From Candidatus Heimdallarchaeota archaeon (GTDB lineage: Archaea > Asgardarchaeota > Heimdallarchaeia > Heimdallarchaeales > Heimdallarchaeaceae), in assembly GCA_030668825.1 (NCBI GenBank), contig DAOVET010000066.1:1-14414 (forward strand): a stretch of 14,414 nt of DNA. Reading direction: 5' to 3'. Position numbers and translations under genes: made by a program. Below are positions 1 through 14,414 of the stretch, piece by piece; the first letter of the stretch is position 1; the number at the start of each line of letters is the position of its first letter. The notes below the pieces were generated by a model. That model had not been told where the DNA came from and searched no databases. It worked only from the letters and a program-made list of their open reading frames with translations.

Positions 1-499
1 ATTCTTTAGCAGTTAATCCCATCTTTGGTTTGACAATGGTTCCAACGTGGGGACGATTAGGAAATTCACCTTTATCTGTTCCCAAGATTTTACGAACTCC
101 TTCAACACCAAATTTTGGTCCTGGAAAGTTTTCAGCGATACTACGTGGAAATTCTACATCCATCCATCTGATATTGCGAAGAGCACCTAAACCAAAAAGG
201 TTACCCGCTAACATGGATAGAATGCTTGTAATTCCTGCTTCTGTATCAAAAGTTTCTGTCTTAAAACCAATTAAAACTTCCCCACTCTGATATCCATCAT
301 GGTCACCAATAACTTTGGTATCCAGAATTTCCGCCCTTAACCTAGGGATGATATCAATTTCTGTGTTTTCAATTGTAGTAAGCTTGGTCCATGTACCAAC
401 ACTTTCTTCATCACATATTTCTTCTGCAGCCGTTTCGACTGACTTGACGTGCTCGACGTAGTAACGAGCAACTAATAATTCTTTATATTTATCTTTCAT
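1..499 (-). CDS. rbcL: RuBisCO large subunit, form III-like (N-terminal ~166 aa; runs off the window start)
   Basis: Not in the ORF track. Manual minus-strand translation from the ATG at 499 gives MKDKYKELLVARYYVE...ICDEESVGTWT...SMLAGNLFGLGAL...FPGPKFGVEGVRK...RPHVGTIVKPKMGL. This matches the RuBisCO ExSxGTWT, GNxFG, GPxFG and GTxxKPKxGL motifs. GGTGA RBS at 505-509; lies directly downstream of R15P isomerase. Confidence 0.93.
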   Translation of the reverse strand, partial: MKDKYKELLVARYYVEHVKSVETAAEEICDEESVGTWTKLTTIENTEIDIIPRLRAEILDTKVIGDHDGYQSGEVLIGFKTETFDTEAGITSILSMLAGNLFGLGALRNIRWMDVEFPRSIAENFPGPKFGVEGVRKILGTDKGEFPNRPHVGTIVKPKMGLTAKE

Positions 500-529
500 A
501 TTTGTCACCAAATTTAATCATAAAATGTT

Positions 530-1465
530 CTAAGTATCCTCACTAATTATCATAAAGGGATACTTCTCCTTAATTATCATATAAACTATTGAAGGTGAAA
601 AAACACCTGATTCTGTTATTATACCATCAATCAAATCAGAGGACACAGTTTCGAACGCAGGATTTAGAAAATTCAATCCTTCTGGAGGATTTTCCCAAAT
701 TTCTGTTCCTGCTCTCATTTCTATTTCTGATAGTTTGCCAATACTCGTTTCAGGATCATACTTTAGGAGATTAATCGCTGTATAAAATGGTATATCCATT
801 TCTTTAGCAGCAAGAGCTAATAACCGTGTTCCAATTTTATTAATGACTGTACCTTGACTTGTAATTGCATCTGCTCCCGTAATTATGATGTCAACATCAT
901 GCCTATTCAATACCCATCTCATTGCACTATCAACAACTTGAGTAGTTGTAATCCCTGCTTCAACTAATTCTTTGGCAGTAATTCGTCCTTGATATAAGGG
1001 GCGAGTTTCAGTACAGAAAACTCGTATGTCTTTGCCTTGATTATGTGCTTCTAGAATGACCCCAGTAGATAAAGAAGAATGACAATGGGTCATAATAGTA
1101 CTTCCTGGTTTAATTCTATGGGCACCATAGGAAATAACCTTCCTTTTCGATTCTTTGAGTAGGTTAACATACTCTTGAGTAAATGAGTTAGCAATTTCTT
1201 TGGCTTCTTGAACAGAATTTGCTTTTTCATGCAGATTATAAATAACATATCTCAAACCGTTTCGAAGAGCAGGTTCAGTAGCTCTAGCTGTAGCTAAAAT
1301 GTATCTAGCTTTTTCCAGTTCTTCAAAGAGATTATCTAATGAGGAAACTTCAAGACGAGTAGCTAATGAAGCAAAGGCTTTTACCCCCTCAATTGCGATA
1401 TTTGTAGCTCCTTGAATTCTCAAGGTTCGTATATCTTCAACAACTTGTTGAAATGCTGAATCCAA
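530..1465 (-). CDS. Ribose-1,5-bisphosphate isomerase (eIF2B-like family)
   Basis: Motifs IQGATNIA, ARATEPALRN, MTHCHSS, ETRPLYQG, VDSAM, GADAIT..G.VINKIGT and NPAFE. TTG start with GGTGA RBS 6 nt upstream. Co-oriented with rbcL, as in the archaeal AMP/nucleoside pentose-bisphosphate pathway. Confidence 0.9.
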   Translation of the reverse strand: MDSAFQQVVEDIRTLRIQGATNIAIEGVKAFASLATRLEVSSLDNLFEELEKARYILATARATEPALRNGLRYVIYNLHEKANSVQEAKEIANSFTQEYVNLLKESKRKVISYGAHRIKPGSTIMTHCHSSLSTGVILEAHNQGKDIRVFCTETRPLYQGRITAKELVEAGITTTQVVDSAMRWVLNRHDVDIIITGADAITSQGTVINKIGTRLLALAAKEMDIPFYTAINLLKYDPETSIGKLSEIEMRAGTEIWENPPEGLNFLNPAFETVSSDLIDGIITESGVFSPSIVYMIIKEKYPFMIISEDT

Positions 1466-1562
1466 TGTAATTCACCTATTAGGTATTTTATATATATCTT
1501 AAAGATAATAACATCAATATAAAACCCGTTTATAAAGACTTGCGGTTTGAACAAATTTTCTA

Positions 1563-2078
1563 CTAGGTTTTGCGAAATAAGCTTCCTAGTTCATGAGCCC
1601 ATTCCTTGACTTTTTCCAAATTTCTAGTATCATAACCAAAACTTGGCATCTTTTTCGTTGTTTGCAGATACCAAATATGAGGAATTTTTGCTCTTGGCAC
1701 TCTTCCACCAAAGGCTTTCATTGAAACTGGTTTTAACCGTGGATACTTCTCTAAGACCTCTTCAAGGAAAACTCGATGTGCTTGATTGTGAAGTCTTTCT
1801 TCTCCAGCGAAACCTGCACAAACGAAAACAGCAACATTCTTGTTAGTAAAATCATTTCTCAGAAATTCTTCAGCACTTTTTCCCCACTTTCCATGGAAAA
1901 TGCAACTTCCAATAATTATGCTTTCGTAATCAGAAGAATCGGGAGTAATTTTATTTTCTTCTAACTGATATAGATCAACTTGAAATCCGTAATCCTTCTC
2001 AAGAGTATCTGCAATTACAGAAGCAGCTTCTCTTGTTGCCCCATATAATGTTTGATAAGAAACTAATACCTTACTCAT
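1563..2078 (-). CDS. Flavodoxin-domain protein (HemG/Flavodoxin_5-like)
   Basis: N-terminal FMN phosphate loop VSYQTLYGATREAA, followed by IIIGSCIFHGKW, VAVFVC and FGG; C-terminal D.R..EKVKEWA. Confidence 0.8.
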   Translation of the reverse strand: MSKVLVSYQTLYGATREAASVIADTLEKDYGFQVDLYQLEENKITPDSSDYESIIIGSCIFHGKWGKSAEEFLRNDFTNKNVAVFVCAGFAGEERLHNQAHRVFLEEVLEKYPRLKPVSMKAFGGRVPRAKIPHIWYLQTTKKMPSFGYDTRNLEKVKEWAHELGSLFRKT

Positions 2079-2138
2079 AAAATCACTTAATAGCTATTTT
2101 TACAAAAAAGAGTTTTAACCTTTAGTATTTGACAAAAA

Positions 2139-2198
2139 TGGTGGGGCACGGCGGATTCGAACCACCGACCATCTGGTTTCTCAGTTTTGGCTCATAAT
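2139..2198 (-). repeat. Displaced partial tRNA copy (att-like direct repeat): 3' exon with CCA plus the canonical intron
   Basis: 2139-2198 matches 5291-5350 at 55/60 nt (50/53 over the first 53). Followed on the minus strand by a TTTTT tract. Confidence 0.93.
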
Positions 2199-2241
2199 AA
2201 CTCTACAAGCTTAATTACAAAATAGTTTAATTTTTACCACG

Positions 2242-2276
2242 TTTTTATATCATTTTAATCATTTAATGTTAAATGA
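2242..2276 (+). promoter_or_regulatory. Candidate TATA box and inverted-repeat operator for the island ORF
   Basis: TTTTTATAT at 2242-2250, followed by the TCATTTAA-tg-TTAAATGA dyad at 2259-2276. Confidence 0.35.
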
Positions 2277-2323
2277 ATCTGAAACTTTTCATTTTTACAA
2301 CTTAGAGGAAATCAAGTTTCTTC

Positions 2324-5284
2324 GTGGTGATTGAAATTAATCTCAAGGTAAATACACAGAATACTGCGGATAAACATACCAGAATAAAAGAAATCGAAGA
2401 AATGAAAAGAGAAGTACAAGAAGTTCTCCAATTTATCAAAAAAACAAAAAAGAATATAGAAAAGCTCCAGAAACACAATAAAGCAAAATTAGTCGAAGGA
2501 ACAGAAGAGAATTCAGGCCTTGAAACTATCAACTCAAATGAAATACAAATTGTCTGTATTGAATTTGATGATAACCTCTCCTGGGGAGCTTTAGAAAACT
2601 TAACAGAAAGCAAATACAACACTTTACCAGATAATGACAAATCCTTTGTGAAGCTTGTAAATTCATTGTTCTTTCCTAAAATGAGGTCAATTAGTGATAT
2701 TATAAATGATAACAGTAGCCTAAAGAGTTGGAAGGAACACATAAAAAATCTGAGACCAATAATTGAAAACAAAAAAGGAATTCTTTTTGGGGAGTATTTG
2801 TTCAAAGAAAGTTTGAAATTTTCTAAGGAAATCTATGATTCTTATACAAGAAATGTTCTTTTTGGAAAAGGATATGATGAAGATCATAAACGAAAAATTA
2901 CAAGGGAATTTTTCAACAAACATGGTTCGGATATAACTGAAAATATTAGGAAGAAGCATGATTTAACTCATGAAGAAGCTAGAATATTTACCATCTACTT
3001 GGCTTGCATGTCTGATTTTGATAAGAAAGTGTTAGGTTTTGATTATGGATCTATGCATGAGTTCTTCCAGAATGTTTGGATAAAAATAAATCATGATCGA
3101 GATGAGTTTAGAGGAAAACAACACATTTCAAAGGATAGTCAAAAAGTAATTGTTCATTCGGATTTCTCTAGGTTCAAATCCAGCGTATCTTTAGGTTTTG
3201 ATTCTTATTTTACTTTACTTAATCGCAATAAATTCGAATTATGGTTTTCAGAACAAAAATGTGGTGGCAGTTATTCTATATGTAAAAACTTCAAAAATAT
3301 AGGTGATCCTCTACATAAATCAGTTTTTAATCTAGCTCAAAAACGTACTAACAATAAGTTTCAAGATATTCTTCAGAAAATAGGGTTTACAGTACTTCAA
3401 AGCATTGACTTTTCTAATTCTTTGTTTAAACGATATACCTATTACTATGATGCACAGGGTAACAATTTTCTGCAAAAAATGAAATCAACGAAATATCAAC
3501 ATGACCTAATTTTTGGTTTGGAGAGAAATAAGATTCCGAATGCAAAACAATTGACAAGGAAATTAATTAAATCTGCAAAAGACAACCATCGTTTGATAGC
3601 CTTGATGCAGAATGGTTATACACTAAGTGACGAATCGAAAGTAATCAATCATCTAGATATCATAAATAGAAAAGAACAACCCCTTTGTATTATTGGTGAA
3701 ATATTTTCTTTCAAACCTATAAAAAATGAAAAAGGAGATTATATTGTATCAATTGAAGGGTATTCACAGAAATTACTTAAGAAAATACAAAAAACTCATT
3801 CAGTTTTTAATTCAGAATTATACTATCAACTGAACTCTATTTTCAAGTCTATCTCAATAAGTAGAAATTGTAAAATTGAAGAGACTGTAGCTTCTCCTAA
3901 ATACATTGAATCTCTCCTGTTTGCATATAATAAGATCCTTCACGAAATCTATCAGTATCTTATAGATAGCAAAAACTTTACATCATTTGAGATGCTCAAA
4001 GATGGTAAAACGTTTGTATGTAGTGAAATTGCTTCAGAAGATATTTCAAATGTTAAACTATGGCTTGAGAAAAACCAAAAGATGTATTCAGCAATTCCAT
4101 ATACAACGAATTACGTTTGGAAACTACCTCTTTATGGCAAACTAAAGGAAATAAGTCGAAACAATCCTATAAAATTAAGTGAAACCAAGGAACTAGCGTT
4201 CAAAAAACTATTTTCTTATAATGATAAAGAAGTATTAGATTTCCTTAAAGAAATGACTTCTAAAGATTTTTCGGAAGAAGATTTCGAACAAAAAGTAAAG
4301 ACTGATCCTGAACACTCCCTTATATTCAGCATTTTGTATTTGCTAAAAGGGAACACAAGGTTAAAACTTCGTAAGAACCTGTTTGAACAAGGAGATTTAG
4401 TTAGGTCGCTAATATTTCTGGATGAGAAAAGTAATCCAGTAAGAACATTTGGCGATGATAAAAATCTTTCTTCAATGGAAAATCCATATTTAAATATCAA
4501 GATTGACTTCAATGAGATTTTTAGCATAAATAGATTCTTAGATCGAAATGTTCTATCTACATTCCCTATAGCAATAAAGTCAGGAAAATCGTCAACAAGG
4601 CATTCTGAATTGAAATTTAGATTCTGCAGAGTCGATGGAATACGTGCGGGAAAAAAAGGGGTGAAGGCAAGAGAGATGTATATAGAAAGAATAAGAGAGA
4701 TGTTAAGCCATGTTGATGAAATTAACGATGCAATTGAGACATTGTATTCCAAACCTGCTATTTCTTTTAACCTATTAAGAGGTGAAAACAGAGAAATCAT
4801 GATGAAATTATTCATCTACTTGTTCTTTGAATATAATGAGGTTTGGAAAGAATTTAGTAATTCACTGTTGGATTATCTGAAGAAGAATCTCTTCCTATTA
4901 ACAGAGGATATGATTTTAAATAGCTATTTCATAAAATCTGGATGGAATATAACATTCAAGTCTATAAAAAAAATTGAAGGTCAAAAATGGTTAATCCACT
5001 ATATAGTGAATAAAAACTCTGGCAAAGTTTTTGACAGAAAGATAGAGGTGCTACCAGCATTTGCCAATATAAGGTTTAAGAATTCTAGTAAAGAGAGCAT
5101 ACGTGATATTAAGGCAGAGTTAACTTTGTTTTGTAACTACAATCCTTTATTTCTTAAGATTTTGAAGATTTTAGAGTCGGGGATAGCACCACTTGTTTTT
5201 AGCAAAGGTAAAGATAATTTAGATTCAAAAACAAGTTATTCGTGGAAAAATTCAGTAGATTGGATGGAAAAAGTGTGTGTTTAA
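2324..5284 (+). CDS. Large hypothetical protein (986 aa), putative PD-(D/E)XK nuclease-domain protein
   Basis: A 2961-nt uninterrupted ORF in AT-rich DNA, so almost certainly coding. N-terminal coiled-coil-like stretch; candidate motif GSMHE(246)...GFD(293)...SEQK(310-312). Start codon uncertain (GTG 2324/2327 or ATG 2402). Function is inference only. Confidence 0.75.
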   Translation: MVIEINLKVNTQNTADKHTRIKEIEEMKREVQEVLQFIKKTKKNIEKLQKHNKAKLVEGTEENSGLETINSNEIQIVCIEFDDNLSWGALENLTESKYNTLPDNDKSFVKLVNSLFFPKMRSISDIINDNSSLKSWKEHIKNLRPIIENKKGILFGEYLFKESLKFSKEIYDSYTRNVLFGKGYDEDHKRKITREFFNKHGSDITENIRKKHDLTHEEARIFTIYLACMSDFDKKVLGFDYGSMHEFFQNVWIKINHDRDEFRGKQHISKDSQKVIVHSDFSRFKSSVSLGFDSYFTLLNRNKFELWFSEQKCGGSYSICKNFKNIGDPLHKSVFNLAQKRTNNKFQDILQKIGFTVLQSIDFSNSLFKRYTYYYDAQGNNFLQKMKSTKYQHDLIFGLERNKIPNAKQLTRKLIKSAKDNHRLIALMQNGYTLSDESKVINHLDIINRKEQPLCIIGEIFSFKPIKNEKGDYIVSIEGYSQKLLKKIQKTHSVFNSELYYQLNSIFKSISISRNCKIEETVASPKYIESLLFAYNKILHEIYQYLIDSKNFTSFEMLKDGKTFVCSEIASEDISNVKLWLEKNQKMYSAIPYTTNYVWKLPLYGKLKEISRNNPIKLSETKELAFKKLFSYNDKEVLDFLKEMTSKDFSEEDFEQKVKTDPEHSLIFSILYLLKGNTRLKLRKNLFEQGDLVRSLIFLDEKSNPVRTFGDDKNLSSMENPYLNIKIDFNEIFSINRFLDRNVLSTFPIAIKSGKSSTRHSELKFRFCRVDGIRAGKKGVKAREMYIERIREMLSHVDEINDAIETLYSKPAISFNLLRGENREIMMKLFIYLFFEYNEVWKEFSNSLLDYLKKNLFLLTEDMILNSYFIKSGWNITFKSIKKIEGQKWLIHYIVNKNSGKVFDRKIEVLPAFANIRFKNSSKESIRDIKAELTLFCNYNPLFLKILKILESGIAPLVFSKGKDNLDSKTSYSWKNSVDWMEKVCV

Positions 5285-5329
5285 AGAAGTTGGTGGGGCA
5301 CGGCGGATTTGAACCACCGACCAACTGGT

Positions 5330-5350
5330 CTCTCAGTTTTGGCCCAAAAT
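5330..5350 (-). other. Canonical tRNA intron at 37/38 (21 nt)
   Basis: BHB motif: TGG-CTCA-TA|A ... TGAG-AG|A-CCA. Removing ATTTTGGGCCAAAACTGAGAG restores the 7-nt anticodon loop. Confidence 0.88.
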
Positions 5351-5364
5351 TATGAGCCAGTCGC

Positions 5365-5395
5365 CTTTTAGTTAATGGCACGCAGCCATTTGACT
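5365..5395 (-). other. Non-canonical tRNA intron in the D-stem at 23/24 (31 nt)
   Basis: Relaxed BHB: TCG-GTTA-GA|A-GT ... AC-TAAA-AG|G-CGA, with an internal AATGGC/GCCATT hairpin. Removal restores the D-stem GCTC/GAGC. Confidence 0.8.
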
Positions 5396-5452
5396 TCTAA
5401 CCGAGCTGAGCTAGTGCCCCTTTTCTACTTATACTCTCTCATTCTCTTTTTT

Positions 5453-6337
5453 TTAAGTTTTTTCTTCTCTTCTAAAAGCTTTGTTACATCTACAATTATT
5501 TTTTGATCTCTTTTTTGTAAGCAAGAAAGAAGCAATTATGATTAAACTAAGAATTAGATAATAACCAGTATAAGCAATTATTTCTAACCATGTTGGTTTA
5601 TCTTGATAACCAAATAAAGCCCTAAGAAATTTTCCTAGTTCATTTGTCTTATCGTTGAGAATTCCACTCATATCCCAAGCATGTTTTTGTAACCAATGCG
5701 TTTCAGATCCAAACCAACCAATTTCTTGGAATTCGTGAATTCCATGAGAAAACATACCTGCTGCAACAATAATTAAGACAATGCTTGTAAATAGAAAGAA
5801 CAATCGTAAGTTAATCTTTTTGCCAGAATAGAAAATCAGAACAGCAATTACTAAAGCGACAACGATTCCTAATAATCCTGACCAAAGAACAATCCAAGGA
5901 CTATCTTCAGTAGCCCCAATACCAGCAAGAAAAAGAACTGTTTCTACCCCTTCTCTTAGAACAGAGATTAGCGCAAGTGTCAGTAAACCATATTTTTGTT
6001 GTTGTTTTATTGAAATGTCTACCTTTTCTTCAAGTTTCTTCTGAACATCTTTTCCTGTTTTTAGCATCCATATTATCATCCATGTCAGCAACAATGAAGC
6101 TATTATCATTGCAAAACCTTCAAAGATTTCTTCATAACTTTCAAACCCACCTAAAGCAAATTGAAAGATAACAGCTGTAAGAATTGAGAGGACAATACCT
6201 GCAATTGTACCTATCCACACTTGTTTTTTTAATTTCCTTTCACCTATTTTTGTAACATAAACAAGTAAAATACCAACTATTAATGTGGCTTCTATAGCCT
6301 CTCTCAATGTAATCAGAAAACTTGCTAAACTAAACAA
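5453..6337 (-). CDS. FTR1/EfeU-family iron permease
   Basis: Two RExxE motifs (LREAIEA, LREGVET), about 7 hydrophobic segments, HGIHEFQE and LFGY; TTG start with GAGGGG RBS. Confidence 0.92.
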   Translation of the reverse strand: MFSLASFLITLREAIEATLIVGILLVYVTKIGERKLKKQVWIGTIAGIVLSILTAVIFQFALGGFESYEEIFEGFAMIIASLLLTWMIIWMLKTGKDVQKKLEEKVDISIKQQQKYGLLTLALISVLREGVETVLFLAGIGATEDSPWIVLWSGLLGIVVALVIAVLIFYSGKKINLRLFFLFTSIVLIIVAAGMFSHGIHEFQEIGWFGSETHWLQKHAWDMSGILNDKTNELGKFLRALFGYQDKPTWLEIIAYTGYYLILSLIIIASFLLTKKRSKNNCRCNKAFRREEKT

Positions 6338-6408
6338 AAATTCCCCTCTGGTTCAATTTAACAACACTAAATGGAGTTTATGAATGTTACATTTTTACAA
6401 AACAATTT

Positions 6409-6711
6409 TCATTGATTGTCTCTATTAGTTTTCGGTCCAGAAATAATGGGTTCTGCATATTTTGTAACTGATTCAGACAAGGTATTAATTTTTCCTGCAG
6501 AGAATCTATCAATACGATTCTTAGAACAACCATTACATAATCCCGCAGGTAACACTATTTTTGAAACCAGATCTTTTTTTTCTCTACTTATGCACCTGCC
6601 ACATAAATGTTTCCCACATTCTTCACATGCAAACTTTGCGGCTGCTCCACAGTTTAAGCAGATTAATACAATTTCTTCATTCTTTTCTCCTATAACTATC
6701 ACAATAGTCAT
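6409..6711 (-). CDS. Small Cys-rich zinc-finger protein (B-box/treble-clef-like)
   Basis: Four CxxC pairs: CLNC-x7-CEEC-x4-CGRC...CNGC. Start uncertain; the ATG at 6711 is preferred over the track's TTG at 6846. Confidence 0.65.
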   Translation of the reverse strand: MTIVIVIGEKNEEIVLICLNCGAAAKFACEECGKHLCGRCISREKKDLVSKIVLPAGLCNGCSKNRIDRFSAGKINTLSESVTKYAEPIISGPKTNRDNQ

Positions 6712-6930
6712 AGGATTCTCAAGTATTAAACCCCAACACTTTTGCATAAATAGAATAATCACACCAATTATTTTTTTCCTAAAAAAGTATAAAACAGTAA
6801 ATGTATGTGTTATGTGGCATTCTTTACGATCCACAATTTTTTGCAATCTCTAGTACAAGGGTACAAGAATAACGATAAATCAGTTCCAATAACCGAAGAA
6901 AAGTAAAACAAGAAGAAGCATTTTTTGATT

Positions 6931-7794
6931 TTATTTTTCTAATAAGAAATCTGCTTCTTCCGCATTAAAGGAGCTTCTAACGAAAGGCGCTGAAGCTACA
7001 AATTGAAAACCCATCTCATAAGCTTTTTCTTCATACTCCTTAAATAAATCAGGATGAACAAATTCTTCGATTTCTAAGTCAGAACTAGGGGGTTTAAGAT
7101 ATTGACCAATAGTTAGGATGTCACAATCTACTTTTCTAAGATTTTTCATTACTTCCAAAACTTCTTCCTTTGTTTCTCCTAAACCTACCATTAAACCTGA
7201 TTTGGTAAGAAGCTCTGGGTTCATCTCTTTAACCAATTTAAGTAATCTAAGAGACTTTTTGTAATCTGCTTGAGGAGTAACTTTTCTGAAGAGCCGAGGG
7301 ACTACTTCCACATTATGATTAATAATGTCTGGTTTTGAATCGACCACAGTTTTAATGTCTTGTTCTTTGCCTTTTAAATCTGGAATAAGTAGTTCTATTA
7401 TAAGATTCTCGTCATAATCCCTTAACTTCTCTGTGATTTTAGCAAAATGAGCTGCTCCACTATCAGGTAAATCGTCTCTTGTTACAGAAGTAATAACAAC
7501 GTGCTTTAGCCCTAATCTTTTTGTTGCTTCAAGTAAATGGTCTGGCTCATGTTCATCTAAGGGTTTAGGTCTTCCAAAATCTATATCACAGAACTTACAA
7601 TCTCTTGTGCATATGTCTCCCATAACAAGAAAGGTGGCTGTCTTTTTTTCAAAACACTTACCAATGTTTGGACACATTGATTCTTCACATACAGTATGAA
7701 GTTCTAATTTTCTCAGTATTTGTTGAACTTCACGGATTTTTTCTCTATCCATGCTTCCTATTCGTAACCATTCAGGTTTTCGGAGCCTAGTCAT
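6931..7794 (-). CDS. lipA: Lipoyl synthase
   Basis: CEESMCPNIGKC (CX4CX5C), CTRDCKFC (radical SAM), VITSVTRDDL, NHNVE, KSGLMVGLGE, TIGQYL and VRSSF. Confidence 0.97.
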   Translation of the reverse strand: MTRLRKPEWLRIGSMDREKIREVQQILRKLELHTVCEESMCPNIGKCFEKKTATFLVMGDICTRDCKFCDIDFGRPKPLDEHEPDHLLEATKRLGLKHVVITSVTRDDLPDSGAAHFAKITEKLRDYDENLIIELLIPDLKGKEQDIKTVVDSKPDIINHNVEVVPRLFRKVTPQADYKKSLRLLKLVKEMNPELLTKSGLMVGLGETKEEVLEVMKNLRKVDCDILTIGQYLKPPSSDLEIEEFVHPDLFKEYEEKAYEMGFQFVASAPFVRSSFNAEEADFLLEK

Positions 7795-8491
7795 CTTTCT
7801 TAATCATCTCTTCTAATTGATTTTCTGTGATTTTTTCTAGTTTAAAATTGAATATCTTCTCGAATGCACTTTCGAATTTCTCATATATCTCCTTTATGTC
7901 CAATGACTTTCCAAGAACCTGTTTCATTGAAATTGGCTCATATTCAGTAATCCCACAAGGAATAATTAAGCGAAAATGATCCATATTTGTATTAACGTTC
8001 AATGCCAAACCATGGGATGTAATCCTTTTTGATGCTCTTGCTCCTATTGCCGCCAACTTCCATTTTCTTCCTTGGTAATCTACCCAGACTCCAGGATATC
8101 CTTTTTTTCTCCACCCTTCAATCTTATATTCTTTTAATAATTCAATCAAAGTTTCTTCCATACTCCAAACAAATTGATCTACACCCATATTCAACTTTAT
8201 CAAGTTAAGATGAAAGTAACCCACAAGTTGTCCTGGTCCATGATATGTTACCTCTCCTCCCCTCCTTACTTCTATAATGTCAATTTCTTCTTCTTCAAGA
8301 ATTTCATTAGTTGCTAAAATATCCTCTCTTGATCCCTTTTTTCCAATTGTAAAAATTGGATTGTGTTGTAAAACTAACAAGAAATTGGCAAACTCACTGT
8401 CGTTTTCCTTTTTACTTCTAATCCTCTGTTGCAAATCGAGGGAATAACTATATTCTAGGAGATTGTACTCGACAAGATAGCAGTTTCTCAT
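7787..8491 (-). CDS. lipB: Octanoyltransferase
   Basis: QHNPIFTIGK, RRGGEVTYHGPGQLVGY, KLAAIG, HGLALNV and F..IIPCG; overlaps the lipA start by 8 nt. Confidence 0.95.
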   Translation of the reverse strand: MRNCYLVEYNLLEYSYSLDLQQRIRSKKENDSEFANFLLVLQHNPIFTIGKKGSREDILATNEILEEEEIDIIEVRRGGEVTYHGPGQLVGYFHLNLIKLNMGVDQFVWSMEETLIELLKEYKIEGWRKKGYPGVWVDYQGRKWKLAAIGARASKRITSHGLALNVNTNMDHFRLIIPCGITEYEPISMKQVLGKSLDIKEIYEKFESAFEKIFNFKLEKITENQLEEMIKKDD

Positions 8492-8597
8492 TGTTTTCTG
8501 TTTTTACATGTATTTTTAGCAATTTTGGTTTGTCAGTTTCTTGTGTGTATCAGTAAAGTTGAAAAGTGAGTTCGTTATAGGTAGTAATTGGTTATCT

Positions 8598-9338
8598 ATG
8601 GCGAAATTTCTGACAATTTTACTTGCGGAAGCATCTATCGAATCCTTTCCAGAAGAACTGATGAAGGATATGAATGTGAGAAACTTCTTTTCTAAACTAA
8701 AGAAATCACCATCTGAAGTAATGCTAGATGTAAACTATCATAAGCAACTCATCGGAGGACTACCAGATTTTGAGAGACGAGGAAGGCCTGATATTGTTCA
8801 TTTCACTCTCTTGTCTTGTTTTGGTTCTATTTGTGCTAGAGAGGAAAGACTCCAAGTGATTATTCACACATATGATAACAGAGTAATATATCTCAATCCT
8901 GAAATAAGATTACCGAAAAGCATTGAGCGGTTTAACGGTCTATTCTTGCAGCTGTTTAAGAATGGAAGATCACCTCCAACAGGAGATGAAGTATTAATGA
9001 ATCTTACAAAGAGTTCACTTCCGAATCTTCTGGAAGAGTTACGGCAGAAACATGACATGATAATTGAGTTCAGTGTTAAAGGAGAACAACTTACTTCTCT
9101 TGAATATTCAAAAATAATTTTTGAATCCACAAATCCCTTACTAATATTTGGAGCTTTTCCACACGGAGATATAAAGAATTTACCAAGAGAACTAGTTGAC
9201 AAGAAGTTGGGAATTTATGAAGAAGGTTTAGATTTGTTTGCTGTAATATCTCAAATCCTTGCTAGTCAGCATATGATTGAAGAAGATTCACTTTCAAAAG
9301 AAAAAGGAACTGAAGAACAAAAAATTTCATGGGAGTAA
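8598..9338 (+). CDS. nep1: 16S rRNA pseudouridine N1-methyltransferase Nep1/EMG1
   Basis: LAEASIE, RRGRPDIVHFTLL, IHT, RLPK..ERFNGL and GAFPHGD. ATG 8598 preferred over the track start at 8541. Confidence 0.92.
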   Translation: MAKFLTILLAEASIESFPEELMKDMNVRNFFSKLKKSPSEVMLDVNYHKQLIGGLPDFERRGRPDIVHFTLLSCFGSICAREERLQVIIHTYDNRVIYLNPEIRLPKSIERFNGLFLQLFKNGRSPPTGDEVLMNLTKSSLPNLLEELRQKHDMIIEFSVKGEQLTSLEYSKIIFESTNPLLIFGAFPHGDIKNLPRELVDKKLGIYEEGLDLFAVISQILASQHMIEEDSLSKEKGTEEQKISWE

Positions 9339-9407
9339 GAATGGAAGAATAAAAGAGCGACTTCCTAACGACATGTTTAAATTATTTCTTTAATTCGCTC
9401 AAAATAG

Positions 9408-11534
9408 GTGACAATACTGCCATTAGCTAAATTAGATAAGTTATTGCATCCAGAAAGTGTTGCCATTATTGGTGCTAGCCCAGATAAGAAGAAAGTTGGA
9501 TATGCTGCCTTAAGAAACATGGTGTTAAGCGGTTTCAAAGGAAGACTTTATGCGATAAATCCAAAAGCGGATCAATATGGGGAGATTGAGGGTGTAAAGG
9601 TTTATGCAAGTATAAATGATATTGAAGATGAAGTTGATTTAGCTGTTATCTGTATTCCTGCAAGATTTATCCCATCATTAATGGACGATTTGGGGAAAAA
9701 AAGCGTTAAATATGCTGCTGTAATCACAGCTGGTTTTAAAGAAACTGGTTCTGAAGGTGCTGAGTTAGAGAAAAAAATTGTAGAGATTGCACGAAAATAT
9801 GGCATAAGAATTGTGGGTCCAAATATTTTGGGTGTTATGGATACATCTGCTCCTATGAATGCTAGTTTTGCAGAACGCTCACCTATTAAGGGTGATGTGG
9901 CATTTCTGAGTCAAAGTGGAGCTTTGTTGACAGGAATATTAGATTGGAGCTGTGCTGAGGGAATTGGATATTCAAGTTTTGTTTCTCTAGGGAACAAAGC
10001 TGATTTAGATGAAACAGATTTTATTGAAGCGTTAGCAGATGATGAGCACACTCTAGCAATTTTGGCATATCTTGAAAGCATAAGTAGGGGGCTTGATTTT
10101 ATCAAAATTTGCAAATCGGTCACTCGAAAAAAACCGGTTATTATCTTAAAATCTGGATGTTCAATAGCTGGAGCAAGAGCTGCTTCCTCGCACACAGGCA
10201 GTATGGCAGGAGTAGATACAACCTATAATGTGGCATTTGAGAAAGCTGGTGTGATAAGAGCAGATGATGCTCAAGAATTATTTGATATGGCTTTTGCTTT
10301 TAGCTTTATGCCTATTCCTGAAGGAAATAAAATAGTTATAATTACAAACGCGGGAGGACCTGGAATATTAGCTACAGACGCAGCAGAAAAATCTGGTCTT
10401 GAACTTGCAACACTTTCTACTGAGTTTAAAGATAAATTAAAATCCTTCTTACCACCAGCTGCAAACTTCAACAATCCTATTGATGCACTTGGAACCGCCC
10501 AAGCAGAAGATTATGGGAAGGTTCTAGAGCTGTCCTTGTTAAGTGACGATGTAGATGGTGTAATTCTAATTCTTACTCCTCAGGCAATGACTGAGGGTCA
10601 AGAAACTTCAGATAAAATAATAGAAATACGTAAAAAATATCCACACAAGCCCATTATCACTGTTTTCATAGGTGGGGAGATTTTAGGACCAAGTATTTAT
10701 CATTTGAAAAAGAACAAAATACCTTGTTTTCCTCATCCAGAAAGAGGTGTGCGAGCAATGGGCGCTCTTGCTGAATATGATAAAATTAGAAAAAGACTCG
10801 TTGATGATAAAATTCCAAATCTAGATAGAGACAAAGAACAAGTTAGAAGTATCTTTGATAAAGTTAAATCAGAAGGGCGGAAGAACTTATTGGGTACAGA
10901 AGCAATTAACGTTGCAAAAGCATATGGGATTTATGTTCCTAATACCAAATTAGCTCGATCAAAAGAAGAAGCTGCATCTTTAGCTGAGGAAATAGGCTTT
11001 CCTGTTGTAATGAAAATAACAAGCCCTGATATTATACATAAAACAGATATTGGTGGAGTAAGGTTAAATATCAAAAGCAAAGAAGAAGCTACCAAAACAT
11101 ATGAAGAAATAACCGCTAAAGCAAAAGAACATTATCCTGAAACCAAGCTTCTAGCAGTTGATGTTCAAAAGATGGAAAAGATAGGAAAAGAGCTCATTGT
11201 AGGGTCAATGAAGGATCCTCAATTTGGTTCTCTTGTTATGGTGGGTTTGGGAGGTGTTTATACTAACTTCTTTAAGGATGTAGCTTTTGGGTTAGCTCCA
11301 TTGACAAAATTAGAATCTAAAAAGATGTTACAGCGTACAAAAACATATACTCTTCTCAAAGGAGTACGGGGAGAACCACCATCCGATATAGCAGCAGTGA
11401 ATGAAACTTTACTTAGAGTATCATTATTAGTTACTGACTTTCCTGAAATAGAGGAACTAGATATCAATCCATTTTTTGTTTATGAGGAAGGAAAGGGTGT
11501 ATCTGCTTTGGATGTGAAAATAACTCTCGAATAG
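9408..11534 (+). CDS. ADP-forming acetate/acyl-CoA synthetase, fused alpha-beta
   Basis: SVAIIGAS, GPNILG, SQSGAL, SLGNKAD, ASSHTGS (phospho-His), TNAGGPG, NPID, HKTDIGGV and DINP. Confidence 0.93.
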   Translation: MTILPLAKLDKLLHPESVAIIGASPDKKKVGYAALRNMVLSGFKGRLYAINPKADQYGEIEGVKVYASINDIEDEVDLAVICIPARFIPSLMDDLGKKSVKYAAVITAGFKETGSEGAELEKKIVEIARKYGIRIVGPNILGVMDTSAPMNASFAERSPIKGDVAFLSQSGALLTGILDWSCAEGIGYSSFVSLGNKADLDETDFIEALADDEHTLAILAYLESISRGLDFIKICKSVTRKKPVIILKSGCSIAGARAASSHTGSMAGVDTTYNVAFEKAGVIRADDAQELFDMAFAFSFMPIPEGNKIVIITNAGGPGILATDAAEKSGLELATLSTEFKDKLKSFLPPAANFNNPIDALGTAQAEDYGKVLELSLLSDDVDGVILILTPQAMTEGQETSDKIIEIRKKYPHKPIITVFIGGEILGPSIYHLKKNKIPCFPHPERGVRAMGALAEYDKIRKRLVDDKIPNLDRDKEQVRSIFDKVKSEGRKNLLGTEAINVAKAYGIYVPNTKLARSKEEAASLAEEIGFPVVMKITSPDIIHKTDIGGVRLNIKSKEEATKTYEEITAKAKEHYPETKLLAVDVQKMEKIGKELIVGSMKDPQFGSLVMVGLGGVYTNFFKDVAFGLAPLTKLESKKMLQRTKTYTLLKGVRGEPPSDIAAVNETLLRVSLLVTDFPEIEELDINPFFVYEEGKGVSALDVKITLE

Positions 11535-11757
11535 AGAGTAATTTATGCATTTGTTTTTGTATTATTTCTGTATTATCCACGTAACTCTTTAATTATTCTC
11601 TTCTACTTTCAGTTACTATCAAGGTAATTTCTCGCATTTTAGCAGATAACAAAAAAAGAAGTTCATTTTTGTTTGCTAATTAGTTTTTTGGGTAGTTAAC
11701 AAGCATATTAGGTTCTCTTTAAAACCTCAAAACCTTGATATGAATATGATTGGTTTT

Positions 11758-12369
11758 TCAATCAACTTTATCTTTCGCACTTTCAAAGATAATAAATCCA
11801 GTCTTTAGTTTTTCTGCTTCTTCTTGTGAAAGTTCAATTGTCTCTAGTTTATTTGGATCTGCAGGAATGATGGATGAATTTCCAAAAGGATCTTCAACAA
11901 CAATATCGATTGGAAGATTATCTTTAATATAAGAATCTAAGAGTTTAACATATCCTCTAATCTTTTCTCTTTCTTCATCTGAACCTGCATCACCTAAGAG
12001 GAAAAACGCTTTTCCTCTAATGTCGTGAAGTATACCTTCAATATTGTTGATAAAACCTTCCGCATTAGGACCTGGTTCTATCATAGCCCCTATTTGTGGA
12101 AAGATTATCGTTCCGTTAGCAGCTCTTATGATTTTTGTTGTATAATCATCCTTATTTTCAGCATGGTAAATGTACCTGATTGGATCTTTGAATGAGAGAT
12201 TGATAAAATCATTGTGCTTAAAATGACAGTCAGAACAAACCATATTGAAAAACCAAAGTTGAGGAAAATGAGGGATATCCATTATCTTTTGTGTAATTTT
12301 TGTATTGGTACTGTTGCACACAGGACATTTGACTTCCATCAATTCAAAATTATGTTCTTCTGTTGTCAT
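11758..12369 (-). CDS. zpr1: Archaeal single-module ZPR1 zinc-finger protein
   Basis: CPVC...IPHF...CSDC, IEPG, GFINNIEG and EDPFGNS. Confidence 0.92.
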   Translation of the reverse strand: MTTEEHNFELMEVKCPVCNSTNTKITQKIMDIPHFPQLWFFNMVCSDCHFKHNDFINLSFKDPIRYIYHAENKDDYTTKIIRAANGTIIFPQIGAMIEPGPNAEGFINNIEGILHDIRGKAFFLLGDAGSDEEREKIRGYVKLLDSYIKDNLPIDIVVEDPFGNSSIIPADPNKLETIELSQEEAEKLKTGFIIFESAKDKVD

Positions 12370-12426
12370 TTAATCGCTTCTTACTTCTTTATAAATCATT
12401 TAAAGTTTAAGATAGAATGAAACTTA

Positions 12427-12451
12427 GTTCAAATAATCTACAAATTTGAAC
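12427..12451. promoter_or_regulatory. Inverted repeat in the divergent zpr1/glycosylase promoter region
   Basis: GTTCAAAT-N9-ATTTGAAC. Confidence 0.3.
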
Positions 12452-12487
12452 AGTAAATTTTTTTAGATTAAAATTCAAGGAGTATTT

Positions 12488-13126
12488 ATGAGAGAAGAGC
12501 TATTGGACGTATACAACAACCTCTATGAAGAATATGGTTCTCAAAACTGGTGGCCAGGCAAGGGGTTGGAAATCGCCATTGGAGCAATATTAACTCAACA
12601 AACTAATTGGAAAAATGTGGAAAAAGCTCTTCTTCAGTTGAAGAATGCACATTGCTTGAATATGGAATGTTTGCAGAAGATTTCTATTGAGGAATTAGAA
12701 AAACTAATCAAATCAAGTGGATTTTACCGCATAAAGGCTAGACGTTTAAAAAACCTAATAGAACTACTATCAATCAACCCACAACCTGATCGTAAAACTT
12801 TGTTATCAATAAAAGGGTTGGGTGATGAAACAGCGGACTCTATTATGCTTTACTTATTCGAAAAGAAATATTTTGTAATTGATTCCTATACATTTCGAAT
12901 TATGAATAGACTTGGTTTATACGATGGCAAGAATTACTTGGAACTCCAAAGACTATTTATGAAGAATCTTCCAAGTAAGTTACAGTTATATAAAGAATAT
13001 CATGCGTTGATAGTGAAACATGCAAAGAGTCATTGTATAAAGAGCAATCCTCAGTGTGTTAATTGTGTACTCAACAAAAGATGTCAATACAGTATAGAAC
13101 AAAACAAAAAGAGTATGGAGCGGTAA
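12488..13126 (+). CDS. Endonuclease III-related HhH-GPD DNA glycosylase with C-terminal 4Fe-4S motif
   Basis: WWP, GAILTQQTNW.NV, SGFY..KA, HhH LLSIKGLGDETAD, VIDSY and C-x6-C-x2-C-x5-C. Confidence 0.9.
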   Translation: MREELLDVYNNLYEEYGSQNWWPGKGLEIAIGAILTQQTNWKNVEKALLQLKNAHCLNMECLQKISIEELEKLIKSSGFYRIKARRLKNLIELLSINPQPDRKTLLSIKGLGDETADSIMLYLFEKKYFVIDSYTFRIMNRLGLYDGKNYLELQRLFMKNLPSKLQLYKEYHALIVKHAKSHCIKSNPQCVNCVLNKRCQYSIEQNKKSMER

Positions 13127-13128
13127 AT

Positions 13129-14328
13129 ATGTTTCTTAACAAAGAACAACAGAAGATGCTAGATGGGGAATCTGGACATGCAATTGCTAAACTCATCCAA
13201 TTAATTGTAAAAATCGGTGAAGTAAATGGTGCAACAAAACTTATTCCCATAAAGAATGCACAAATTGCGGGTGTTTCATACTTAACTGTTGGTGAACCCA
13301 TTTTCTCTTTTTTCAATATGTTATCTGAAGATAATGTCAAAGTTAGTGTCCCTAGCTGGTTAAATCCTGCTGGGATGGATATGAAAAAATGGAAAGAAAT
13401 GGGTATAAAAAATGATTTTGCTGAAAAACAGCGTAGAATTATACAGCAATATCAGGAAATGGGAATACAAACAACACTTACCTGTACACCATACTTGATT
13501 GGGCATAAGCCAAAATTTGGTGACCATTTAGCATGGAGTGAATCATCAGCTGTATCGATAGCTAACGCTTATTATGGTGCAAGGACAAACAGAGAAGGAG
13601 GTCCTTCCTCTTTAGCATCAGCTATAACTGGTTTTACTGCTGATTATGGGCTACACAAAAAGGAAAACAGAGTTCCTAGAATAGTTGTAAATGTAAAAGC
13701 AACAATTAATCATTTTTCAGATTTCTCCGCTCTGGGCTACTGGTATGGGGAAAAGTTTCATGGAATTATCCCATATTTTACAAGTATAAAAAATGCCAAT
13801 ATTGATCAAGTAAAAATGTTGGGCGCGGCAATGGCTGCATCAGGAAGTGTGGCTCACTTTCACATTGCAAAGCATACACCAGAAGCTGAAAAAGTTGATT
13901 TGAGTTCTGTAAGTGAAACAGTTACCTTCGATGAAAGCGATAAAAAACAAATATACAGCCACTTCAACCAAACAAAGGAAAGAGTAAATTTAGTGGCAAT
14001 TGGGTGTCCTCATACAAGTATTGAGGATATAAAGCTTATTGATTCATCTCTTGGAGATAAGTCTATCAAGGAGGGGATTAAATTCTGGGTTTTTTCCTCT
14101 CAAAAATTGATGCAAAATGATAAAGCAAAGAAACTTTTAACTAATTTGGAGGAAAAAGGAGTGAAAATATTTACTGATACTTGCATGGTCGTATCTCCTG
14201 TAGTTAGAGAAAATTACAAAAATATTTTGACCAATTCTGCCAAAGCAGCATTTTATCTCACTAGAGAAGGTACAAATAAAATTAGCTTACTCTCTTTGTC
14301 TGAAATTATAGAGAGGGTTTCTGAATGA
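13129..14328 (+). CDS. Aconitase X large subunit (DUF521; phosphomevalonate dehydratase-like)
   Basis: TCTPY, AWSESSA, GARTNREG, GCPH, DTCMVVSP and TNSAKAAFY. ATG 13129 follows GGAG and sits 2 nt after the upstream stop. Confidence 0.92.
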   Translation: MFLNKEQQKMLDGESGHAIAKLIQLIVKIGEVNGATKLIPIKNAQIAGVSYLTVGEPIFSFFNMLSEDNVKVSVPSWLNPAGMDMKKWKEMGIKNDFAEKQRRIIQQYQEMGIQTTLTCTPYLIGHKPKFGDHLAWSESSAVSIANAYYGARTNREGGPSSLASAITGFTADYGLHKKENRVPRIVVNVKATINHFSDFSALGYWYGEKFHGIIPYFTSIKNANIDQVKMLGAAMAASGSVAHFHIAKHTPEAEKVDLSSVSETVTFDESDKKQIYSHFNQTKERVNLVAIGCPHTSIEDIKLIDSSLGDKSIKEGIKFWVFSSQKLMQNDKAKKLLTNLEEKGVKIFTDTCMVVSPVVRENYKNILTNSAKAAFYLTREGTNKISLLSLSEIIERVSE

Positions 14329-14414
14329 AAACAATAAAAATACGTACTATTGTTGAAGGCACTGTAGAGGGAGTTGCTTTAGTTTCACCTATTCCAATTT
14401 CGTTTTTTGGTGGG
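14325..14414 (+). CDS. Aconitase X small (swivel, DUF126) subunit, partial
   Basis: Not in the ORF track. ATGA overlap with the large-subunit stop; MKTIKIRTIVEGTVEGVALVSPIPISFFGG matches the G..EG.ALVS..PISF.GG start of DUF126. Confidence 0.85.
   Translation, partial: MKTIKIRTIVEGTVEGVALVSPIPISFFGG

Follow-up and report, generated by a model that had tools for sequence, protein, structure and literature searches.

Elements moved by tyrosine and large serine recombinases insert in the 3' end of a transfer RNA (tRNA) or protein gene and supply a replacement for that end, leaving direct repeats of tens of nucleotides (nt), and their empty and filled sites coexist. Free-standing homing endonuclease genes are single selfish genes between housekeeping genes, patchy at one exact site that diverged lineages share, and they decay frequently; repair-driven homing alone leaves no displaced duplicate of the target end. 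Several PD-(D/E)xK enzymes also serve mobile elements. For Heimdallarchaeum, passages of Wu et al. 2022 (PMC8813620) describe integration next to tRNA genes, an element of 8 kb that carries a LAGLIDADG gene and lies between the 16S gene and tRNA-Arg(TCT), and aloposons, which are giant genes upstream of tRNA sites and consist of tandem genes for 3000-6000 amino acids (aa) with four upstream genes, including one for a ParA-like ATPase. Here we analyze a stretch of 14,414 nt from a Candidatus Heimdallarchaeota archaeon (contig DAOVET010000066.1, positions 1..14,414, assembly GCA_030668825.1; hereafter the window), in which an element with a single open reading frame (ORF) occupies the 3' end of a tRNA-Met gene. 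With a probability of roughly one half, we read it as a selfish, site-specific single-gene element whose protein drives its own insertion via a nuclease-like centre. The parts of the locus are the following.

2139..2198, minus strand: displaced copy of the 3' part of tRNA-Met, from the anticodon-loop/intron part to CCA; outer repeat (direct repeat D1)
2139..5290, no strand assigned: inserted element of 3152 bp (equivalently 2199-5350, the crossover lying inside the repeat)
2324..5284, plus strand: sole ORF of the element, 986 aa, GTG start
5291..5420, minus strand: working intron-bearing tRNA-Met(CAT) gene, detected by ARAGORN with introns allowed
5291-5350, minus strand: inner repeat, the last 60 nt of the working tRNA-Met gene

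The two copies of the tRNA end match at 55/60 positions and are spaced by 3152 nt, with one ORF alone between them. The displaced copy adjoins the flavodoxin gene, and no complete tRNA was found at 2139-2198 by ARAGORN or Rfam. The working tRNA-Met gene begins directly past the stop of the ORF; default ARAGORN and the Rfam tRNA model missed it, Rfam giving only a weak tRNA-like match, and our reading by eye places two interruptions in it, in the D-arm region and past the anticodon. The G+C content of the element and ORF region is 0.28-0.31 vs 0.34-0.37 in the flanks, where the neighbours are housekeeping genes, among them those for type III RuBisCO, an IF-2B-family protein, flavodoxin, FTR1, lipoyl synthase and ligase, and EMG1. 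In the mechanism we propose, the element came with a tRNA 3' end of its own, which kept tRNA-Met whole, and displaced the original end to its far side.

The loci related to the window come from Heimdallarchaeota metagenome-assembled genomes, and since the genomes compared are 69-95% complete, empty and filled states were judged only at loci that are actually assembled. An empty site is found in genome G030, where the gene order is lipoyl synthase, tRNA-Met, flavodoxin and IF-2B, and about 105 nt separate tRNA-Met from the flavodoxin gene; thus, both direct repeats duplicating the target 3' end and an empty site in relatives are present for the window element. The filled arrangement recurs in related genomes at protein identities of 61-95%, with DNA identities of 92-98% in the flanks and 61-90% in the insert. 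In three close relatives (G036, G033 and G021), the tRNA 3' half matches the displaced fragment of the window at 57-58/60 positions vs 54/60 for the working copy; this closer resemblance to the former is suggestive, within a small sample, as to which tRNA half is ancestral. No ORF match lies within the 257 nt before the contig end in G036, and the last 86 aa of the family protein lie beside the tRNA in G021. Another candidate for a clean empty site, G028, was rejected: its flanks are 93-95% identical, but an unrelated alcohol-dehydrogenase gene stands beyond the tRNA. The G089 version of the island (L005 200-1957, minus strand) holds a second gene, encoding 585 aa, in which a winged-helix region is fused to a radical-SAM domain (PF04055). 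G030 is also without the FTR1 gene and the small B-box-like zinc-finger ORF (6409-6846) that lie between the tRNA and lipoyl synthase (window 5453-6850 compared with L111), and this block may be a second insertion, on the 5' side of tRNA-Met.

Public assemblies gave weak hints that assembly graphs branch at the edge of the element: contig ends or loose ends fall at 2135-2148 in two public runs from different studies, and the members of the protein's 90% cluster, together with two homologue clusters (81% and 65% identical), lie on contigs of 3151-3900 nt. Among the contigs of four public runs matching window 1-8000, none joined across the element and none held a circle junction; being contigs and not reads, they are uninformative on absence.

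The same displaced-end logic as at tRNA-Met is seen at a protein-coding target, where members of a clade of about 910-aa proteins are encoded between the genes for fumarase beta and alpha, in the same orientation. Among the 29 fumarase loci in the family's genomes, 7 are filled, 21 are empty and 1 is cut by a contig end; in the empty loci, one of them in the window's own genome, 0-10 nt separate the beta stop from the alpha start. In 5/5 filled loci with both sides available, about 125 nt that formed the original 3' end of beta now adjoin alpha and hardly differ from the sequence at empty sites; the end of the working beta gene is diverged and was supplied by the element. The occupants of this site include lineages only 43-48% identical, and the element of G011, which belongs to another genus, nests in the own-genus fumarase subclade, with G012 of the G011 genus empty. 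This site therefore displays what is expected of homing-type elements, namely presence and absence at one exact position together with horizontal spread.

Insertions recur in which a family member is the only gene or stands at one end, and their targets comprise tRNA-Met, tRNA-Leu, tRNA-Arg, tRNA-Pro, the 16S flank and the fumarase beta 3' end. The single-contig genome G015 has one family ORF at tRNA-Leu, in 2.83 kb bounded by a perfect repeat (39/39 nt) of the tRNA 3' end. Its sister genome G016 was considered as the empty tRNA-Leu site and rejected, for it holds the same insert with aa ~293-928 deleted. In G015, 4 nt separate the end of another family ORF from the tRNA-Arg(TCT) 3' end, and in G014 one starts right past tRNA-Pro(GGG). 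In at least five genomes, members of one clade face the 16S rRNA gene at its 3' end, in convergent orientation; there, perfect 21-50-nt repeats bound islands of 6.4-10 kb in four of six loci, with the family ORF at the 16S-proximal end. The island of this kind in G031 also carries a Schlafen/AlbA_2 protein, and Pfam revealed no known integrase in it. A free-standing LAGLIDADG_3 ORF (L064 5498-6118, plus strand) stands just upstream of tRNA-Arg(TCT) in G015, followed by the family member, and recalls the HeimM2 element as it appears in the passages of PMC8813620.

In the protein tree, every target forms its own clade with 100% support, so that clades track target sites. When the profile of the conserved domain (aa 200-510) was searched over 400 Asgard genomes, matches were obtained in 19, with 17/30 in the window's own family, 1/12 in a second family and 0 elsewhere; a genome holds up to 4 matches, in open frames of 262-4635 aa. 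Several copies are decayed. In addition to the internal deletion in G016, a stop-ridden copy is present in G024, and in G033 (L008 1699-3255, minus strand; also L096) a 518-aa TnpB/Cas12f-like ORF (PF07282) with a 124-aa partner replaces the family gene, the last 35 codons of which remain beside the tRNA. Deletion, insertion-sequence replacement and accumulation of stops are the decay typical of selfish genes. Altogether, these insertions restore the 3' end of the target gene, leave the original end displaced, are patchy among relatives and decay.

These data bear on the view that the family is an ordinary lineage-specific host protein, possibly non-enzymatic, which is inherited vertically and often lost, its adjacency to RNA genes being incidental. 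Orthologues do stand in conserved synteny in several genomes, the ORF is under purifying selection with a ratio of nonsynonymous to synonymous divergence (dN/dS) of 0.12-0.21 against five orthologues, which speaks for a selected function, and the matching of clades to sites could arise from ancient fixed insertions. Nevertheless, original 3' ends survive in displaced form at both the tRNA and fumarase beta, which indicates insertion, not loss, and makes deletion from an ancestral filled state unlikely; the patchy fumarase loci, the distant lineages sharing that site, the nesting of the G011 element in the clade of another genus and the perfect 39- and 50-nt repeats all argue in the same direction, and we regard this explanation as improbable. 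Compared to L003, the ORF shows a synonymous divergence (dS) of 0.69 and a dN/dS of 0.21; this dS is 4-12 times that of three flanking genes (0.06-0.18), with LipA similar at 0.63.

A preliminary description of the window, made from the sequence alone, had proposed a stand-alone, methylase-free nuclease that could be either an anti-viral defence effector or a selfish or homing nuclease. The island indeed contains no methylase or other partner gene, and the selfish or homing option fits the genomic behaviour of the family; the defence option gained no support, as PADLOC gave no match to the 986-aa protein (0 families at E<=1). Related to the latter is the possibility that the islands carry the protein as cargo, such as a nuclease effector with an anti-viral or other role. 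An integrase from another locus of the genome would then move them in trans, or they would be what is left of larger elements after loss of the integrase. Such a scenario would agree with the passages of PMC8813620 in which tRNA genes are common integration spots in Heimdallarchaeum, defence loci included, with the additional genes of some islands (the radical-SAM fusion in L005 and Schlafen/AlbA_2 in G031), and with the lack of any evident known recombinase chemistry in the protein by Pfam, NCBIfam and PHROGs. We consider it unlikely, though not negligible: the family gene is alone between repeats at no fewer than three independent targets (at least the window, tRNA-Leu in G015 and the ~3-kb insert at fumarase), clades track targets as expected of a site-choosing enzyme and not of cargo, and the PADLOC result applies here as well.

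The reading of the protein as the insertion enzyme stems from the absence of any other gene in the minimal elements. The features of the protein that are relevant to such an activity are listed below.

2363..2476, plus strand: long helix near the N-terminus, aa 14-51 (from secondary structure in the full-length model, low confidence)
2921..3853, plus strand: conserved family domain, aa 200-510, carrying the E-D-(E/D)xK signature (profile matches, alignment A4, AlphaFold model)
3059..3259, plus strand: signature residues E246 (3059-3061), D293 (3200-3202) and E310/K312 (3251-3259)
3458..3616, plus strand: motifs G-x-(N/D)-(F/W)-L-x-K, aa 379-385, and (H/N)-(Q/R)-L-I-x-L-x-Q-N-G-like, aa 422-431
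4757..4978, plus strand: C-terminal conserved patch, ~aa 812-885, common to distant paralogues

Database searches placed the 986-aa protein in no known family. It has no match in Pfam or NCBIfam; no recombinase family was found in Pfam (E<=0.01 for P0001, E<=1 for three homologues), NCBIfam (E<=1) or PHROGs (E<=0.01), the only PHROGs match being a weak one of unknown function at aa 700-773 (E 5.4e-4), and sequence and profile searches of PDB with alignments A1 and A4 gave no informative match. A search of 1.84 billion representative proteins at E<=0.001 found 6 proteins, with a single distant one, P0014 (1065 aa, 27% identity), and a word-index search with P0014 returned itself alone.

The preliminary description had further divided the protein into one intact and two degenerate PD-(D/E)xK modules, the first formed by GSMHE (242-246), GFD (291-293) and EQK (310-312), and the others by HDLIF (393-397) with IIGEIFSFK (456-464) and by DFE (653-655), IDF (727-729) and PIAIKSG (748-754). 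All of these motifs are present in the ORF as numbered. It had allowed that such short motifs may match by chance. The protein is lysine-rich and contains the pattern E-x(30-60)-D-x(10-25)-ExK at 5 sites, vs 4.6 ± 2.1 in 1000 shuffles; as a bare pattern, E..D..ExK is not rarer than chance. Conservation separates the first module from the other two. In alignment A4, which comprises 27 sequences of the aa 200-510 domain with a mean column identity of 25%, only four columns are invariant, namely E246, D293, K312 and G379; K385 is retained in at least 90% of the sequences, and E246, D293, E310 and K312 are all retained in P0014, the sole distant full-length homologue. By our own arithmetic, the chance that three of four invariant columns among 311 fall on four residues named beforehand is about 3 in a million. 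It is because of these invariant columns, and not because of the bare pattern, that we judge the E246/D293/E310/K312 signature, at the level of the alignment, to be real, conserved and clearly non-random.

The second and third modules fared differently. In P0014, H393 and D394 are replaced by Y and S, both positions being variable in A4, and K464 is not kept, leaving E459, which is often acidic across the family in A4, as the point in favour of a second module. D653 and D728 of the third module are not kept in P0014 either, and positions 653-754 are reached by only the two closest of the 19 paralogues tested, the M part in both and the C part only in the P0014-type one. Thus, the motifs exist at their places, but residue conservation has largely refuted the three-module arrangement, which we regard as very improbable. 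In more distant paralogues, the shared sequence is confined to the stretch before ~aa 650 and the patch at ~aa 812-885, and a sub-profile of aa 741-986 matches 10/19 paralogue ORFs over profile positions ~43-193. Overall, a unit of about 750 aa, made of the domain, the middle part and the C-terminal patch, is homologous across paralogues and always forms the C-terminal end of longer proteins; the N-terminal part is common to the ~910-aa clade, and the helix at aa 14-51 is probably a coiled coil. A tyrosine-recombinase reading of the C-terminal patch was dropped by eye, as an inference only, since the patch lacks the HxxR...Y spacing.

Whether the one conserved domain adopts the restriction-endonuclease-type fold was approached by structure prediction. 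The full-length AlphaFold model was too poor to use, with a mean predicted local distance difference test (pLDDT) score of 46 and values below 30 at aa 257-399. The model of the domain alone, built from a diverse alignment, reached a mean pLDDT of 78.9 and a predicted template modelling (pTM) score of 0.75, and contains a helix at 241-259, which bears E246, and strands at 273-278, 294-300 and 303-309, with D293 at the start of the second strand and E310/K312 at the end of the third. This predicted helix-strand-strand-strand order fits the canonical order of the PD-(D/E)xK fold, and the single hhalign local alignment to PDDEXK_1 pairs GFD with the catalytic D and ExK with ExK. In the model, as in RecB/Cas4 PDDEXK_1, Hjc, Tn7 TnsA and the R2 nuclease, E lies on a helix, (G)FD at a strand start and (E/D)xK at the end of a hydrophobic strand, with a spacing of 17 residues; unlike in these enzymes, a long helical insert follows the third strand. 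Foldseek returned nothing at E<=0.001 against PDB and BFVD, and Pfam searches with the 27 domain members gave no family common to more than two of them and no nuclease-domain family among the 25 listed. For the intact module, then, the signature proposed by the preliminary description stood and statistical support from fold and profile comparisons did not follow; we consider a PD-(D/E)xK fold plausible and unproven, at about even odds.

In the mechanism that we favour, the protein itself would catalyse insertion as an integrase-like or homing-type enzyme, and the E246/D293/E310/K312 centre, probably a PD-(D/E)xK nuclease site, would cut or exchange target DNA. The target might be cut and then repaired from a circular or linear copy with a look-alike 3' end; another option would be true strand exchange by new chemistry. 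That the 750-1000-aa proteins constitute a new class of site-specific integrase with an E-D-(E/D)xK centre, each alone inserting an element of about 3 kb and restoring its target, is a more tentative proposal, and one we hold as possible and not as probable. On that proposal, the module that ends giant Heimdall proteins would also drive the insertion of giant-gene elements.

Several observations weigh against this mechanism. Catalysis by the protein is inferred from single-gene status alone, and a helper acting in trans is possible. Conservative site-specific recombinases are the enzymes that leave direct repeats of 39-125 nt, and we know of no PD-(D/E)xK enzyme that leaves repeats of such length; cut-and-paste nucleases leave short target duplications, and the repeats at the family insertions are far longer. 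Direct repeats of at least 20 nt straddle the ORF at only 10/27 loci, one of them doubtful. No tRNA or repeat lies near the giant member (4628-aa ORF), the 2979-aa member, the membrane-fused member (1873-aa frame) or the second member of the window's own genome (747-aa frame), and a scan of viral contigs with close-family patterns found no relative. With regard to the catalytic centre, position E310 is E or D in 24/27 sequences of A4, T in 1/27 and N in 2/27; in the domain model, no fourth core strand comes directly past the signature, the third strand being followed by a disordered loop and six helices; and hhalign gave probabilities of only 0.24% to Hjc and 1.7% (E 0.029) to the PDDEXK_1 alignment.

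Compared to described systems, the family shares its insertion pattern with tyrosine and large serine recombinase elements and differs from them in lacking any recombinase match, in consisting of a single gene of 2.8-3.2 kb for a 750-1000-aa protein, and in an invariant set of E, D and K plus glycine in place of R-H-R-Y or a catalytic serine. Unlike homing endonucleases, which it resembles in its selfish behaviour, it has no LAGLIDADG, GIY-YIG or HNH match in Pfam, and its proteins are 3-5 times larger. The window island also resembles the aloposons of PMC8813620, as far as its passages describe them, in being Heimdall-specific, with a tRNA immediately downstream of a large orphan gene, and the domain ends giant frames in G011 and G037; unlike them, it is one 986-aa gene without the four upstream genes and their ParA-like ATPase. 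A link to the aloposon giant proteins was rejected, as in G015 and G016, both single-contig genomes, the domain profile matches no giant ORF. These passages of PMC8813620 describe nothing of the family, and a literature search by title and abstract start found no paper describing it, although a prior description is possible.

If the protein is its own integrase, it would be a compact, self-contained, target-specific DNA insertion enzyme with a chemistry unused by known integrases, natural variants of which are already directed to at least six different sites, and would be of interest to mobile-element biology and genome engineering. It would also account for the spread of orphan genes, giant ones included, through the archaea most closely related to eukaryotes, and for the insertion hot spots at tRNA and rRNA loci of Heimdall genomes. 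Even if only cargo, the family marks a type of minimal island that is readily recognised in Heimdall genomes and had not been described before.

Other members and loci showed features of their own. The 4628-aa ORF of G011 (4635-aa open frame; L029 58-13944, plus strand), in which Pfam detected no domain, and the 2979-aa open frame of G037 (L065 1-8937, plus strand) both end in the ~750-aa unit. In G032, a P0014-type homologue (L083 11927-17545, minus strand; L015) continues upstream into what appear to be several membrane-spanning helices, in an open frame of 1873 aa, and some family members may be membrane-anchored. The 16S and 23S rRNA genes of G011 diverge and do not form one operon (L069 10422-16001). 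In the window at 6746-6935, contigs of runs X1 and X19 have 10-16 other letters in place of about 188 nt, a strain-level indel between the zinc-finger ORF and lipoyl synthase. The fumarase-site island of G023 carries a solute-binding-protein gene (PF00496; L072 4407-6215, plus strand), and a similar gene lies near the paralogue in the window's own genome (L062 6434-8374, plus strand).

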